Below are positions 149 through 55,403 of a DNA stretch of 64,000 nucleotides, piece by piece. Made by a program: the position numbers and the translations under genes. The stretch comes from Candidatus Woesearchaeota archaeon (GTDB taxonomy: Archaea > Nanobdellota > Nanobdellia > SCGC-AAA011-G17 > GW2011-AR18): NCBI GenBank assembly GCA_018302545.1, contig JAGVZM010000002.1:2198-66197 (forward strand). Reading direction: 5' to 3'. The notes under the pieces are model-generated. The model did no database searches and was not told where the DNA came from. It saw only the letters and a program-made list of their open reading frames with translations. Every line of letters begins with the position of its first letter. Position 1 is the stretch's first letter.

Positions 149-1393
149 TCACCATTTCTTTTCAGCTCCACTAAACTCTAAAATAAAAGCATGCAACCAT
201 TGCATACTTCTAAACAAGGGATATATAAAGATGTAAATAAGGGAAGGTATATAAAACTTCCATTTCTCGCCAACATATTTATGTGCTGCTAAGTATAGAT
301 ATAACCCTAAGAACAAAACAACTAAACTTGGAAAAAGTAAATTCCAGTTTAAATTTAAAATAAATTGAAGGAGTGTAGGAAAATCAAATTCAAGAAAAGC
401 AAGTTTCATTATATAAATCTTAAAAGCTAAATCAAGAAATAAAGTAACTATATGATAACCAAACAGACCAATAGAAAAGAATACACAAAGTAAAACAAAA
501 ACTTCTAAAGGAATTTGAAACATGCCTAATAGACCATAGTTTTTATTTAATATCATTTTTTTGTATTTTAAATTGTTATACATAAATCCTCTAAACCATC
601 TAACTCTCTGCATCCACATTGTTTTTATTTTAGTAGGCACTTGAGTTCTAAAATTGCCATGTTCACACATTACAATCCTATAATCATTATATCTTAGTCT
701 CATAGCAATCTCAAAGTCTTCAGTTAAATTGCCAACATCAAAGCCGCCAATCTTTTTTAAAATACTAGTTCTAAATAAACTAAGTGCATTAGTAATATGT
801 AGAGTATCTGCAGTTCCTAATAATTTCCTAACAAAAGCAGCCATTACATATTCCAAGTTTTGCATCCTAGCAATGAAATTTCCTTTATTCTTGATTAAAG
901 TAATAGCAACAACAGCCGCAACATCAGAATTATTTTTATCATAAAAATATTTAACCATATTTTTTAATAAATTTTTATCAGAAACAGAATCAGCATCATA
1001 AACCCAAAAATATTCTCCAGTTGCTTCCTTGAGAGCAGTATTCAATGCTCCGCCTTTGCCTAAATTTTGATTGTGTTTAATTAGTTTAATTTTAAACTTA
1101 GACTTAGAAATAAAATTATTAAGAACTTTAATAGTATTATCCTTACTTTTATCATCAACAACAATAACCTCTAAATTATTAGTAGGATAATCCTGAGAAA
1201 AAATGGATTTTAAAGTTTGAATAACAGCTTTTTCCTCATTCCAAACAGGAACAGCAACAGTAATATTAGGAAAGGTTTTGAGATCTGGGAGTTTCTTATC
1301 ATAATATTTAGTAGCAAAGTTAAGTATAATCCATAGTATAGCTACAAAAGTAGATATAAATGAGATAATCCAAATATAAATTTCAAATAGCAT
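149..1393 (-). CDS. family-2 glycosyltransferase, processive (membrane-integrated) synthase type
   Basis: 414 aa; N-terminal TM; GT-A core VAVPVWNEE...VVDDKSKDNT, YDADSV (DxD), and QRVRWFRG (QxxRW processivity motif) followed by several TM helices. Confidence 0.8.
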   Translation of the reverse strand: MLFEIYIWIISFISTFVAILWIILNFATKYYDKKLPDLKTFPNITVAVPVWNEEKAVIQTLKSIFSQDYPTNNLEVIVVDDKSKDNTIKVLNNFISKSKFKIKLIKHNQNLGKGGALNTALKEATGEYFWVYDADSVSDKNLLKNMVKYFYDKNNSDVAAVVAITLIKNKGNFIARMQNLEYVMAAFVRKLLGTADTLHITNALSLFRTSILKKIGGFDVGNLTEDFEIAMRLRYNDYRIVMCEHGNFRTQVPTKIKTMWMQRVRWFRGFMYNNLKYKKMILNKNYGLLGMFQIPLEVFVLLCVFFSIGLFGYHIVTLFLDLAFKIYIMKLAFLEFDFPTLLQFILNLNWNLLFPSLVVLFLGLYLYLAAHKYVGEKWKFYIPSLIYIFIYPLFRSMQWLHAFILEFSGAEKKW

Positions 1394-5291: not shown

Positions 5292-6389
5292 CTAAAGTTC
5301 AACAGAATACCTTAGTATAGCTGCAACACCACCAAGTTCTTTTAATTGGGATCCTTCTTTAGTATCAAGACTAATAATAAATACATTAGTTCCCGTTTCA
5401 TTAGCTTTTTCTTCATATTCCTCAAGTTTAGAAAAACTCTCACTTAATAATAACTTATCAACTGCCCCATATTCTAAAGATTTTAAAACATCGGCAGGAC
5501 CATAAACCGCCTTATCTGAATTTTTAGATATTAGGGTAAAAAATTCATTAACAATCTTTTTTTCCTTTACAACTTCAGCTTCAGATAAAACATCCTGAGA
5601 TCTTTCAACTAATTCATTTAAACCTTCTTCATCAGTATAAGAGATATCCTTAATTGCTAAAACTTTCTTTCTTAATTCAGCATGAAGATGATTAGAATTA
5701 AAAAAAGTTTCTTTTGTTGGACCCGGACCACCTATTAATATACCCTTAAGATCCTTCCCTATTGCAGCAAATTCAATATTCGCAACATCAGAAACTCTCT
5801 TATAAAACTCATTAGCTGCCTCTTCTCTCAATCTTGCATACCTTTGTTGGGACCAGCCACCAACTTTCAATTTTCCAGGAACAGTAGAACTAAAATCTCT
5901 AATTACTTGTATGCTTTTCCCTTTTAATAAACCAAGTGTAGCTTCTCTATTATCCAAAACAAGCAATCCGTATATTTCATTTATTTGAATCATAGAATCC
6001 AAAGGATCTAAAATAAAAGTTTGATCACATCTATACATCCTAATGTTAACAGGAACAGGAGGCTCAACACTCCAGACTTGTATATCTTGTTTTCCTTCCT
6101 GCTCTGAAACATTACCAGAAAAAGCAGCCAATCCATTAGAAGGAGTAACCTTAAATAATCTCAAATGTCTTATCATCCTTTCTAAAGCATCTTGTACATT
6201 CTGTCTAGTAGTCTTGTCTTTTATATTAGAAGCAGTTCCTTGTTCCTGTGCCAAATGTTGAATTATTTTATTAAGATCATATCCTATAGGAATATAAACT
6301 GTAATAAGCTCAGTATGTCTAGCTCTATATTTTTTAAGTTCATTAACAAATTTCCTTAATTTAAATTGATTTTTTGTGTCCATATTCAA
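5292..6389 (-). CDS. prf1: peptide chain release factor aRF1 homologue with GGQ replaced by GGW and NIKS by NIKD
   Basis: 365 aa; GTASNIKDKTTRQNV (NIKS loop), YRCDQTF (YxCxxxF), PGKLKVGGWSQQRYARLREE aligns without gaps to eRF1/aRF1 PKKHGRGGQSALRFARLR; C-terminus GGVAAILRYSVEL; W codon is TGG at 5855-5853. Confidence 0.85.
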   Translation of the reverse strand: MNMDTKNQFKLRKFVNELKKYRARHTELITVYIPIGYDLNKIIQHLAQEQGTASNIKDKTTRQNVQDALERMIRHLRLFKVTPSNGLAAFSGNVSEQEGKQDIQVWSVEPPVPVNIRMYRCDQTFILDPLDSMIQINEIYGLLVLDNREATLGLLKGKSIQVIRDFSSTVPGKLKVGGWSQQRYARLREEAANEFYKRVSDVANIEFAAIGKDLKGILIGGPGPTKETFFNSNHLHAELRKKVLAIKDISYTDEEGLNELVERSQDVLSEAEVVKEKKIVNEFFTLISKNSDKAVYGPADVLKSLEYGAVDKLLLSESFSKLEEYEEKANETGTNVFIISLDTKEGSQLKELGGVAAILRYSVEL

Positions 6390-6403: not shown

Positions 6404-8785
6404 CTAAAACTCTATTTTAAGTTCCTTTCCATATTTTATTTCTTTGGCTTGCGTAACTGCCTTTAAGTCTTTATCTAATAATTTAAGACTTGTATAACAA
6501 TTCAAAAGTTTTAAAGGTTCCTTTAAAGATTTACCTTTAGAAGACTTCTCCTTCCTAACAAAACTAACTACTTCTACAAATTCATTCCCAATTTTCTCAG
6601 ATTTCTTATCAACTAAATTTTTATCAAAAATAGGCCAGGTACTAATATGCAAACTTTTATCCTTCTCTTTATCCTTAAATATGTCTTGATATAACTGTTC
6701 TGTAATGTAAGGCATAATAGGAGCAAATAATTTTAAGATATTAAGTAAGCAAGTATATAAAGTAAATAAAGAACTATCACGTTCTTTACTCTTACCTTCA
6801 CTATAAATCCTATATTTAACAAACTCTAAGTAATTATCACAAAAATCTTTCCAAAAGAATATATCAATCGCAGCTTTAGCTTTACTATATTCATAAACTT
6901 CAAATGCTTGAGTGCAAATTTGAATAGTATTATTCAATTTATTCAAGATCCATTTATCTATAATTTCTAACTCAACTTTTTTCAATTTGTAATTATCCAA
7001 ATGTTGTCTTGCAAAATTAAAAGAGTTCCATAATTTAGTAACTGTTCTTTGTCCAGTACTCAATTCCTTCTCCAAGTATCTCAAATCATCTCCTAATTTA
7101 GAACCTGCTGCCCAAAATCTTAAAGCATCTGCACCGTATTTATCTAAAACTTCTGCAGGTTCTATAGCATTACCTTTACTCTTGTGCATAGCTTGCCCTT
7201 TAGGATCCAAAACATGCCCAGAAATAACTATATCTTTCCAAGGAAGTTTGTTATGATGATATAAACCTTTAACAATTGTATAAAAAGCCCAGGTTCTTAT
7301 TATATCATGTGCCTGAGGTCTTAAACTACAAGGATACATTTTATCAAAATCAAAATCATAAACATTATCCTTTACCCAATTTAAAATAATTTGAGGAGTT
7401 ACACTAGATGTAGCCCAAGTATCCATTACATCCTTTTCTGCTTCAAATTCATTATTACCACATTTACATTTAGTCTTAGGCTTATCATTTAAAGGATCAA
7501 CAGGAAGTTGTTTTTCATCAGCAATAATAACTTCAGAACAGTTCTTACAATACCAAACCGGAAAAGGAACTCCAAAATGTCTCTGCCTAGATATACACCA
7601 GTCCCATTGCAAACCTTGAATCCAATGCTCATATCTTAACCTCATAAATTGGGGATACCAATTTATTTTTTTACCTTCATCAATAAACTTCTTTTTATTA
7701 TCCAAAACTTTAATGAACCATTGTTTTGTACTTAAGAATTCTATTTCTGTTCCGCATCTTTCATGTACATTAACAACTTGTTTAAGAGGTTCTTGTTTAA
7801 CTAAAACTCCTGCCTCTTTCCAATCTTCTAAAACTAGTTCTCTAGCCTCTTTTACACTCATACCTTTATACTTTCCTGCTTTATCATTCAATTTTCCATC
7901 TTTATCAAGGATATGTATAACCTCTAATTCTGGATGTTTCCTTACAAATTGAAGATCATGAATATCTCCATAAGGACACCAATATACTGCACCTGTTCCA
8001 AATTCAATTTTAGAGAAGTCATCAGCTATTATTGGAACCTGAATATTACTAATAGGAATTGTTGCTTTCTTACCAATTAAATTCTTATATCTTTTATCCT
8101 CTGGATGAACAGAAATAGCAATACAAGCCATCATAAGTTCAGGCCTTGTAGTAGCAAAAGTTATGTTGCTTCCCCCCTCAACTTCAACTTTTACATAATT
8201 TAATTTAGATTCTCTTTCTTTGTCTTCCAAATCAGCTTGAGCTATAGCTGTTTGACAATGAACACACCACATAGTAGCGTCCTCACTTTGATAAACTAAT
8301 TTTTTCTTGAATAGATCAATGAAAGATTTTTGAGAAGTCCTTATGCAATGCTCATCTATCGTAGAATAAGTTTTAGAAAAATCACAGCTCATACCCACTA
8401 ATTTCCAATCATTAATAAAATCAGGTTTAATTTCCTCAATAGTCTTTTCACATAATTCTACAAATTCATGTCTACTCATTTTTGTAGACCTAACGTTCTT
8501 TAATTTCTCAACTAATTTCTCTGTAGGTAAACCATTATCATCTGTACCAAAAGGAAAAAAAACATTATCTCCTTTCATTCTATGATATCTAACAACAATA
8601 TCTTGTTGTGTATAACTAAAAGCATGTCCTAAATGCATCTTACCAGATACAGTAGGAGGAGGAGTATCTACAACATAAGGTTTAGCTTTAGATTTTTTAT
8701 TAAATACATAAACCTTTTCTTTTTCCCAAAATTCTCTCCATTTCTTTTCTACATCCTTAAAAACATATTTATTGTTACTATTCAT
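6404..8785 (-). CDS. valS: valyl-tRNA synthetase
   Basis: Class I aaRS; PPPTVSGKMHLGHAF (HIGH), CP1 editing region, AMHKSKGN (KMSKS variant); ORF opens at 8866 but MNSNNKYVFKDVEKKW at 8785 matches family N-termini. Confidence 0.9.
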   Translation of the reverse strand: MNSNNKYVFKDVEKKWREFWEKEKVYVFNKKSKAKPYVVDTPPPTVSGKMHLGHAFSYTQQDIVVRYHRMKGDNVFFPFGTDDNGLPTEKLVEKLKNVRSTKMSRHEFVELCEKTIEEIKPDFINDWKLVGMSCDFSKTYSTIDEHCIRTSQKSFIDLFKKKLVYQSEDATMWCVHCQTAIAQADLEDKERESKLNYVKVEVEGGSNITFATTRPELMMACIAISVHPEDKRYKNLIGKKATIPISNIQVPIIADDFSKIEFGTGAVYWCPYGDIHDLQFVRKHPELEVIHILDKDGKLNDKAGKYKGMSVKEARELVLEDWKEAGVLVKQEPLKQVVNVHERCGTEIEFLSTKQWFIKVLDNKKKFIDEGKKINWYPQFMRLRYEHWIQGLQWDWCISRQRHFGVPFPVWYCKNCSEVIIADEKQLPVDPLNDKPKTKCKCGNNEFEAEKDVMDTWATSSVTPQIILNWVKDNVYDFDFDKMYPCSLRPQAHDIIRTWAFYTIVKGLYHHNKLPWKDIVISGHVLDPKGQAMHKSKGNAIEPAEVLDKYGADALRFWAAGSKLGDDLRYLEKELSTGQRTVTKLWNSFNFARQHLDNYKLKKVELEIIDKWILNKLNNTIQICTQAFEVYEYSKAKAAIDIFFWKDFCDNYLEFVKYRIYSEGKSKERDSSLFTLYTCLLNILKLFAPIMPYITEQLYQDIFKDKEKDKSLHISTWPIFDKNLVDKKSEKIGNEFVEVVSFVRKEKSSKGKSLKEPLKLLNCYTSLKLLDKDLKAVTQAKEIKYGKELKIEF

Positions 8786-9097
8786 TTTATCAACTCCAAA
8801 TAAGATGGTATATAAAATATAATGTAAATGCAATAGCCTAAAGGCTATGCCACCACTACAGAACAAACTAATAAAAACAATACAACACTGAAATTATTGT
8901 TTCTAATCATAAAAAAAAGATAATTAAAAGATATTAAAACCTTTCGATTGAAAACATTTTTAGATTTTAAATAAAAAAGACATAAAAAACTATAATGAAA
9001 AACAGCAAAAACTTTAATAAGAGTAATTTAATCAAAAACAATATTGGGCCTGTAGCTTAACCTGGGAAAGTACACGACTGAAGCTCGTGTTATTGTG

Positions 9098-9129
9098 ACT
9101 GATTAACAGGAATTGTTAGTTGGCAATAA
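9098..9129 (+). other. tRNA-Phe intron 1 (32 nt, T-stem position 51/52), BHB type
   Basis: Central helix ATTG/CAAT (9092-95/9124-27), 5' bulge TGA (9096-98), 3' bulge AAG (9128-30), 9-bp inner helix CTGATTAAC/GTTAGTTGG (3 G-U); outer helix weak. Confidence 0.7.
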
Positions 9130-9137
9130 GGTTCAAA

Positions 9138-9155
9138 TGAGCTTGTCTCTGAAAT
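9138..9155 (+). other. tRNA-Phe intron 2 (18 nt, T-loop position 59/60), BHB type
   Basis: Outer helix GG/CC, central helix TTCA/TGAA (9132-35/9150-53), bulges AAT (9136-38) and ATT (9154-56), inner helix GAG/CTC with CTTGT loop; boundary could equally be written 9139..9156. Confidence 0.75.
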
Positions 9156-9329
9156 TCCCACCGGGCCCAGATTTTAATTTAAATCCAAAAATAAGATAAA
9201 ATACTTATATCCTACAAAAACATGAGGGTATCTCAACTTGCATTTAATTGTGAATATACTAGAAAGAATTCGGGAATATGGTGCAAATAAAAGAATAATC
9301 AAACTTAAAAAGAAATCAAAATCTAAAAA

Positions 9330-55061: not shown

Positions 55062-55108
55062 GTATTTAAAGTTTCATAAAATTTTGAAATCATAGTCCCG
55101 TCGTCTAG

Positions 55109-55131
55109 ATTAGTTTAAAAACTAAAGACAA
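55109..55131 (+). other. tRNA-Gln intron 1 (23 nt, D-loop after A14-G15), canonical hBHBh' motif
   Basis: Outer helix GTC/GGC (55100-02/55133-35), central helix GTCT/AGAC (55103-06/55126-29), bulges AGA (55107-09) and AAC (55130-32), inner helix TTAGTT/AACTAA with a TAAA loop. Confidence 0.75.
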
Positions 55132-55154
55132 CGGCCCAGGATCGAGGACTCTGG

Positions 55155-55167
55155 ATCAATAGGAGAA
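55155..55167 (+). other. tRNA-Gln intron 2 (13 nt, position 37/38)
   Basis: Anticodon stem as outer helix, central helix CTCT/GGAG (one G-U), bulges GGA and AAA; no real inner helix (relaxed hBH). Confidence 0.7.
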
Positions 55168-55403
55168 ATCCTTGGACGGCAGTTCGAATCTGCCCGGGAC
55201 TATTTTTCCAATAAATTTAAATAACTTTAGTCTTAATCTATTTTCATGAAAACATCAAAGCTAATACAAAATAAGTATTTTTTCTTAGCCATGCTTATGA
55301 TGTTCTAATAGCCTAAAATATTTAGGAGGCCATTGCAATGATAAAAAACAACAAACAGATAGAAGAAGGAACTTTTAAATATCTAGAACTATCAAAGAAA
55401 AAA

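Follow-up and report, generated by a model that had tools for sequence, protein, structure and literature searches.

The region 9046-9169 of the window (the whole 64-kb stretch of DNA that was analysed) raises the question of whether a tRNA gene interrupted twice within its T arm can be a working source of tRNA-Phe(GAA), and by which route the interruptions would be removed. The results presented here indicate that the region is very probably the functional, and probably the sole, tRNA-Phe(GAA) gene of a Woesearchaeota (DPANN) archaeon, the introns of which would be excised by EndA at two BHB motifs. A tRNA-Phe(GAA) with two non-canonical introns at 51/52 and 59/60 had been proposed at these coordinates in a preliminary description of the DNA, and this proposal was borne out by the call obtained for the spliced form and by the comparative data. 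The elements of the locus are as follows:

9013-9020, plus strand: TATA-box-like element TTTAATAA, read directly from the sequence; its centre lies about 29 nt upstream of the tRNA 5' end, and archaeal promoter architecture suggests a promoter role.

9046-9097, plus strand: exon 1, tRNA positions 1-51 (acceptor 5' strand, D arm, anticodon arm with GAA, variable loop, and G49 U50 G51).

9098-9129, plus strand: intron 1, 32 nt at 51/52, relaxed BHB (HBh'); central helix 9092-9095/9124-9127, bulges 9096-9098 and 9128-9130, inner helix 9099-9108/9114-9123.

9130-9137, plus strand: exon 2, 8 nt, GGTTCAAA, tRNA positions 52-59.

9138-9155, plus strand: intron 2, 18 nt at 59/60, strict hBHBh'; outer helix 9130-9131/9157-9158, central helix 9132-9135/9150-9153, bulges 9136-9138 and 9154-9156, inner helix 9139-9141/9147-9149.

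9156-9169, plus strand: exon 3, tRNA positions 60-73 (T60, T-stem 3' strand, acceptor 3' strand and A73; TCCCAC, CGGGCCC and A).

9170-9180, plus strand: T-rich trailer GATTTTAATTT, read directly from the sequence.

Direct reading of 9046-9169 confirmed that the acceptor, D and anticodon arms are contiguous and canonical. Exon 1 opens with GGGCCTG (positions 1-7), T8 and A9, and continues with the D arm, in which GCTT and AAGT enclose AACCTGGGA, the anticodon arm CACGA-CTGAAGC-TCGTG with anticodon GAA and G37, and the variable loop TTATT, which is followed by GTG. The features of a tRNA-Phe are all found in the gene, namely the anticodon GAA, A73, G20, G37 (the wyosine site), a 7-bp acceptor stem, and standard D and anticodon arms; A73, G18-G20 and G37 are likewise canonical in the spliced product. 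Excision of 9098-9129 and 9138-9155 gives a 74-nt RNA, the minimum free energy (MFE) structure of which is a cloverleaf. The T stem-loop GUGGG UUCAAAU CCCAC is present only after both excisions, as had been claimed, and ARAGORN accepts only the doubly spliced form. CCA is not encoded at the 3' end of the gene. The three exons are colinear within 124 nt, and a split or permuted tRNA gene was rejected. In the flanks, the block AA(C/G)(T/A)TTTAATAAG is kept amid diverged sequence in the relative L084, which is considered below, and the conserved TTTAATAA block about 29 nt upstream of the gene is consistent with an archaeal promoter. The trailer GATTTTAATTT is likely to act as the transcription stop; a T-run is found at the same place in L084.

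The position of the introns follows from the exon sequence as well as from the BHB motifs. In an exhaustive search over two deletions, 9098-9129 was the sole placement of the first deletion that restored the T arm, while the second deletion (18 nt) can slide by sequence equivalence, 59/60 being the same as 60/61, and the BHB register selects 59/60. The register applied was that of canonical archaeal introns, which on the 5' side consists of outer helix, 4-bp helix, 3-nt bulge and inner helix, and on the 3' side of inner helix, 4-bp helix, 3-nt bulge and outer helix, each bulge being cut between its second and third nucleotides. Intron 2 conforms to the strict hBHBh' motif, with the central helix TTCA/TGAA (4/4), the bulges AA-T and AT-T (the hyphen marks the cut), an inner helix GAG/CTC of 3 bp and an outer helix GG/CC of 2 bp, and its register yields the T loop UUCAAAU. 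The preliminary description had called this intron a perfect helix-bulge-helix-bulge-helix, and all of the elements were indeed found in register. Once intron 1 has been removed, the outer helix of intron 2 grows from 2 bp to 5 bp, which is the full T stem.

For intron 1, the earlier reading had to be amended. The 4-bp helix ATTG/CAAT (4/4), the 5' bulge TG-A and the long inner helix, 9-11 bp including 3-4 G.U pairs, all stand, but the proposed 3' bulge AA-G is virtually without a closing outer helix, which consists of a single U.G pair, and RNAfold pairs the two A's of this supposed bulge with U44-U45 instead. Because the 3' bulge is not closed by an outer helix, the motif is a relaxed HBh' rather than a strict one; the relaxed HBh' form is a recognised BHB variant (PMC5829648). 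Cutting after the second bulge nucleotide restores the expected T arm in both registers. Under a null model in which the inserts were shuffled in place, the BHB features were reached in 7.6e-4 of trials for intron 2 and in 5e-6 for intron 1. The thermodynamic support for the splicing-competent fold is weak, and energies were not used as evidence: the precursor MFE of -40.7 kcal/mol belongs to an alternative fold in which intron 2 is paired with the anticodon region, the cloverleaf with two BHB motifs reaches -28.4 kcal/mol, and the isolated intron-2 hairpin is no more stable than its shuffles. The non-cloverleaf MFE is treated as a caveat and not as counter-evidence, because BHB motifs are presumably recognised on protein-bound, co-transcriptionally folded RNA.

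The preliminary description had also suggested that standard finders may miss such a gene, and for ARAGORN and default Rfam cmscan this proved to be the case. ARAGORN calls the spliced 74-mer as tRNA-Phe(GAA); the precursor and the two singly spliced forms give no call, whether its intron option is on or off. Whole-window Rfam scans with gathering and E-value thresholds missed the gene, and the match to RF00005, which covers exactly 9046-9169 and takes up 61 nt of the T arm as an insert (32.4 bits against a gathering score of 29, E=4.5e-5), was obtained only when a 421-nt region (8900-9320) was scanned. The archaeal mode of tRNAscan-SE was built to handle such non-canonical introns (PMC8450103). 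No other tRNA-Phe gene is present within the 64-kb window. A second tRNA hidden from ARAGORN and default Rfam scans, a tRNA-Gln, lies at 55094-55202.

The host was identified from the protein-coding content of the window, which has a GC content of 29% and encodes archaeal aRF1, ribosomal proteins, HerA, Hjc and primase. The ValRS adjoining the tRNA-Phe gene is 100% identical to the NCBI entry 'valine--tRNA ligase [Candidatus Woesearchaeota archaeon]', and its best genome matches are all Woesearchaeota/Nanoarchaeota MAGs with 78-50% identity; therefore the host is a DPANN archaeon (a Woesearchaeota MAG) and not a member of the Thermoproteales. The protein database contains no ValRS relatives between 78% and 100% identity, so that the comparison proceeds without a sister-species series for the window. 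The closest ValRS relative (L004, 78%) has no tRNA directly upstream of its ValRS, and a blastn search with exon 1 against the collected loci of ValRS homologues returned only the identical contigs and weak seeds. The flanks of the ValRS homologues were scanned for split tRNA-Phe genes with a strict scanner, a looser one having given AT-rich false matches. In many relatives a tRNA-Phe gene was located near or upstream of ValRS, at the syntenic site.

The most informative of these relatives is L084 (assembly GCA_964482175.1), the ValRS of which is 72% and the aRF1 81-87% identical to that of the window. Its tRNA-Phe gene carries both T-arm introns of the window together with a third, 21-nt intron at 27/28. 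Between the two genes, 73/74 exon positions and 49/50 intron positions are identical, the sole intron change being a U-A to U.G replacement in the inner helix. In the 5' flank identity is 60%, in the 3' flank 44% and at the four-fold third positions of conserved ValRS codons 57%, and it falls sharply at the borders of the tRNA gene. If the introns evolved like four-fold third positions, at least 49 matches out of 50 would be expected with P of about 2e-11 (binomial estimate).

A second relative, L007, provides covariation. Its tRNA-Phe gene is interrupted once, by a 30-nt intron at the position equivalent in sequence to 51/52; this intron starts with ACTGA-TAA and ends with CAAYAA like intron 1 of the window. 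The central helix is GTTG/CAAC in L007 and ATTG/CAAT in the window, a compensatory change between A-U and G-C, and a further compensatory change is seen at the end of the inner helix (T-A in L007, C-G in the window). Two G.U pairs of the window's intron 1 are Watson-Crick pairs in L007, the outer helix of which comprises 5 bp. These changes were counted by explicit pairing, since MAFFT aligned the 51/52 introns without regard to structure (a bulged G is present in L007). The genome L006 (archaeon GW2011_AR18), with a ValRS 93% identical to that of L007, contains a tRNA-Phe gene that is missing exactly the 30 nt of L007 and is otherwise identical except for U55C. This intronless allele corresponds to the predicted product of splicing. 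The same intronless sequence occurs in L092 and L093. Moreover, the T arm that splicing should give in the window, GTGGGTTCAAATCCCAC, is equal to the uninterrupted T arm of the syntenic tRNA-Phe in three other relatives (L008, L085 and L094).

A pattern scan of metagenomes added three tRNA-Phe genes with a 59/60 intron, L089, L090 and L091, which have one, three and two introns, respectively. The pattern forced TGAA-NN at the intron end, and the central helix of these matches is thus present by construction. The contig of L091 encodes EndA beside the tRNA. The scan found only such other 59/60 cases and no further tRNA-Phe gene with introns at both 51/52 and 59/60. Across the tRNA-Phe genes of the clade and the metagenomes, introns occupy 18/19, 27/28, 37/38, ~45-47, 51/52 and 59/60, with 0-3 per gene in mosaic combinations, and close relatives differ precisely by the presence or absence of an intron.

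The near-identity of the window and L084 may be explained in more than one way. The 51/52 and 59/60 pair is 98% identical across two lineages with saturated neutral sites, which could reflect selection on the introns or a recent exchange of the whole tRNA gene. The latter explanation, in which the gene was recently transferred laterally or converted and the introns are spliced but evolve neutrally, is possible, though rather unlikely. It would account for the fact that intron loop nucleotides free of BHB constraint are also unchanged, and it gains from two comparisons: the homologous 51/52 intron of L007 is only ~70% identical to that of the window at a ValRS distance similar to that of L084, and L005, with a closer ValRS (76%), has a far more different tRNA-Phe. 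The abrupt drop of identity at the gene borders, however, was counted against it, and the extra 21-nt intron at 27/28 in L084, which is absent from the window, means that the two genes are not simple copies. Furthermore, ValRS itself appears to be laterally mobile, as it has bacterial-like matches, and the ValRS distance on which these comparisons depend may mislead.

It is very improbable that the locus is a decaying tRNA-Phe pseudogene with two insertions in the T arm, the cell being supplied with tRNA-Phe by another gene. Such decay would fit the failure of ARAGORN to recognise the unspliced sequence and the precursor MFE that is not a cloverleaf, and the part of the genome inspected is the 64-kb window, which leaves room for a second gene elsewhere. 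A pseudogene would not be expected, however, to keep its exons and both inserts 98-99% conserved relative to L084 while the flanks and synonymous sites are near saturation, nor to show the exact BHB registers of the inserts, the compensatory change in L007 and a conserved promoter block. The syntenic site upstream of ValRS, moreover, holds a tRNA-Phe gene in many relatives.

The remaining two explanations carry next to no weight. The source is a metagenome assembly, and chimeric inserts formed by mis-joined reads were considered for this reason; such an artefact is excluded because the locus is identical in 3 independent metagenome contigs, from assemblies of different samples, and the same two inserts recur in L084, a different species-level genome. 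Group I introns are known from archaeal genes and CPR tRNA genes (PMC6125680, PMC13011429), but inserts of 18 and 32 nt are far too short for a ribozyme with a core of hundreds of nucleotides, no Rfam intron family came near significance in 8900-9320 (one chance-level match fell outside the gene), neither insert has another copy in the window, and the BHB registers are exact, so that self-splicing group I/II introns or mobile-element remnants in place of EndA substrates are a negligible prospect.

With the locus read as a functional gene, a splicing pathway can be proposed in which the enzymes and the order of steps are taken from established archaeal tRNA splicing. Transcription from the TATA-type promoter about 29 nt upstream would yield a precursor of ~124 nt. 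EndA would recognise the two BHB motifs and cut after the second nucleotide of each 3-nt bulge, making four cuts at 9097/9098, 9129/9130, 9137/9138 and 9155/9156, and an RtcB-type ligase would join the three exons, of which the middle one measures 8 nt. The spliced RNA would then undergo T-loop modification, CCA addition and aminoacylation. The two motifs are nearly compatible with each other, G52 and G53 being the only nucleotides for which they compete. Simultaneous excision of both introns would leave exon 2 held by two G-C pairs only, while the excision of just one intron would place the ends at a nick in the T stem or T loop. Because exon 2 is so short and so weakly held, and because the outer helix of intron 2 extends from 2 to 5 bp after the removal of intron 1, splicing is probably sequential, proceeding by stepwise cutting and ligation. 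Cases of ordered splicing of multiple introns have been described by the authors of tRNAscan-SE (PMC8450103). As the motif of intron 1 is relaxed, the host EndA would have to tolerate relaxed, non-canonical substrates, which implies a broad specificity. Neither EndA nor RtcB was found among the ~40 ORFs of the 64-kb window compared with Pfam, and a scan of its six frames for EndA motifs was also negative.

The practical lesson of the locus concerns overlooked tRNAs in DPANN MAGs. Two of the three tRNA genes of the 64-kb window (Phe, and Gln at 55094-55202) escape both ARAGORN and default Rfam scans, and therefore 'missing tRNA' calls, completeness estimates and inferences on coding capacity may easily be wrong for such genomes; in a 2026 survey, complete Nanobdellota genomes had a median of only 35 tRNAs (10.64898/2026.05.13.725050). 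The most useful output is the comparative series formed by the window, L084, L007, L006 and their relatives, in which gain, loss and constraint of BHB introns can be followed in a non-thermophilic lineage. The locus is also a demanding substrate for the specificity of the DPANN splicing endonuclease, as one of its motifs is relaxed, its middle exon has only 8 nt and both of its introns fall in the same arm. A more far-reaching interpretation, that woesearchaeal tRNA-Phe is a second hot spot of tRNA intron turnover comparable to that of the Thermoproteales, that the introns themselves are under selection and that 51/52 is a previously unlisted site, is speculative and on balance doubtful. Selected introns might break the T-arm/3'-end attachment sites of integrating elements, or might order T-loop modification.

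Among known systems, the preliminary description had pointed to the Thermoproteales as the group in which multi-intron tRNAs are characteristic. This holds as background, and the window was never assigned there, but the host itself is a woesearchaeon. In the Thermoproteales, tRNAs carry up to three BHB introns at non-canonical positions (Sugahara 2008 and Fujishima 2010, as summarised in PMC4033280, PMC4090602 and PMC8450103), the introns are rapidly gained and lost, and related introns are found at homologous sites (PMC4033280, PMC4090602, PMC8450103). The locus shares with them the presence of multiple non-canonical BHB introns in one tRNA and the use of 59/60, a listed hot spot. It differs in its host, a mesophile-like DPANN archaeon with 29% GC, whereas theirs is a hyperthermophilic crenarchaeon with an (alpha-beta)2 EndA, and the window shows no sign of the same intron having been copied into other tRNAs. 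The positions listed in the review of Yoshihisa (2014) are 20/21, 22/23, 25/26, 29/30, 30/31, 45/46, 53/54, 56/57 and 59/60 (PMC4090602); 51/52 is absent from this list, which ends with 'etc.', and novelty is not claimed for it.

The closest precedent is ARMAN-2, in which pre-tRNA-Pro(GGG) carries two T-loop introns at 53/54 and 59/60, and the 59/60 intron of pre-tRNA-Cys was cleaved in vitro by the host EndA (PMC3239211). The two systems have in common a DPANN host, two BHB introns in the T arm, a very short middle exon and an identical 59/60 position. In the window, however, the isoacceptor is Phe and the lineage Woesearchaeota, the first intron lies in the 5' strand of the T stem (51/52) instead of at 53/54, and its motif is relaxed, while both motifs of the ARMAN-2 tRNA-Pro are described as strict. 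The EndA of ARMAN-2 is of the epsilon2 type, and an alpha4 type with an L3 loop, which is associated with heavy tRNA disruption, has been reported for other DPANN (PMC5829648). In the survey of Kaneta et al. (2018), which included one Woesearchaeota and one Pacearchaeota genome, a marked rise in disrupted tRNA genes and incomplete predicted tRNA sets were noted, undetected disrupted tRNAs were predicted in both groups, and manual searches were called for (PMC5829648). The locus described here is the kind of gene that was predicted to have been missed, although that paper describes neither this gene nor the combination of 51/52 and 59/60 in tRNA-Phe. Heavy tRNA disruption in DPANN is already documented (PMC3239211, PMC5829648), and the two-intron tRNA-Phe is a new example of an already known type of BHB-intron tRNA.

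BHB (bulge-helix-bulge) intron sites among the tRNA-Phe genes located close to ValRS in relatives and those of three metagenome contigs (L089-L091), which came from a scan for tRNA-Phe with a 59/60 intron, comprise 18/19, 27/28, 37/38, approximately 45-47, 51/52 and 59/60. Individual genes in this set carry from zero to three introns in mosaic combinations, and a 27/28 intron with H3 = GCTT is common to the relatives L005 and L084 and to the distant L090.

tRNA-Phe genes of relatives and metagenome contigs
3761-3650 (-), relative L005
3905-3814 (-), relative L008
2905-2814 (-), relative L085
2894-2797 (-), relative L088, with C55
575-431 (-), relative L084
1907-1804 (-), relative L007
1138-1028 (-), relative L097
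4000-4158 (+), metagenome contig L090
487-611 (+), metagenome contig L091
485-381 (-), metagenome contig L089
2841-2768 (-), relative L006, with C55
2844-2771 (-), L092 and L093, with C55

Position 55 of tRNA is normally an invariant U (pseudouridine-55). The tRNA-Phe genes of L006, L092, L093 and L088 were characterized by the T loop UCCAAAU, which places C at this position. In L006, C55 is found together with the absence of the 51/52 intron, while its close relative L007 has both U55 and that intron.

In the window tRNA-Phe, GAGCTT within intron 2 (9138-9147) is the exact complement of AAGCTC, A35-C40 of the anticodon loop and stem (9080-9085). The MFE fold of the precursor is not a cloverleaf because these two segments pair. 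Such complementarity could be due to chance, as about 0.2 occurrences are expected by a rough estimate; the pairing might also delay folding of the anticodon arm until splicing.

The window contains a second hidden tRNA gene, tRNA-Gln(CTG), which is interrupted by two introns and preceded by a TATTTAAA box approximately 27 nt 5' of it.

tRNA-Gln(CTG) and its introns
55094-55202 (+), tRNA-Gln(CTG) gene
position 15/16, D loop (+), 23-nt intron, BHB read manually
canonical position 37/38 (+), 13-nt intron, central helix CTCT/GGAG

By manual reading, the 15/16 intron forms a strict BHB (central helix GTCT/AGAC, bulges AGA and AAC each cut after the second nucleotide, inner helix TTAGTT/AACTAA), a register that the automated check, run on a 24-nt interval, does not confirm. 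ARAGORN identified the spliced 73-mer as tRNA-Gln; the unspliced gene was matched neither by ARAGORN nor by Rfam, even when only 301 nt were scanned.

On L091, where tRNA-Phe has introns at 37/38 and 59/60, the gene for the archaeal splicing endonuclease EndA lies directly 3' of tRNA-Phe and slightly overlaps it.

595-1218 (+), L091, EndA gene, 208-aa ORF (Pfam PF02778 and PF01974, motif GFKFGCDFRVY)

Another long gene resembling a tRNA, apparently interrupted by several inserts, was observed 5' of the L091 tRNA-Phe (L091 17-170, +; acceptor GCCTCAG/CTGAGGC, T arm GAAGG TTCGAGT CCTTC).

The archaeal release factor gene aRF1, located 3' of ValRS, contains an intein inserted after ...KLKVGGW in several relatives (L084 3437-4552, L085 5403-7763, L088 5415-6926), with an Intein_splicing domain and, in L085, additionally LAGLIDADG. 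Unlike these, the window aRF1 (5292-6389) has no intein. For the window ValRS (6404-8785, -), the next-best matches behind DPANN are CPR bacteria and Clostridia (43-55% identity) and not other archaea, which suggests a bacterial-type enzyme common to DPANN and bacteria.
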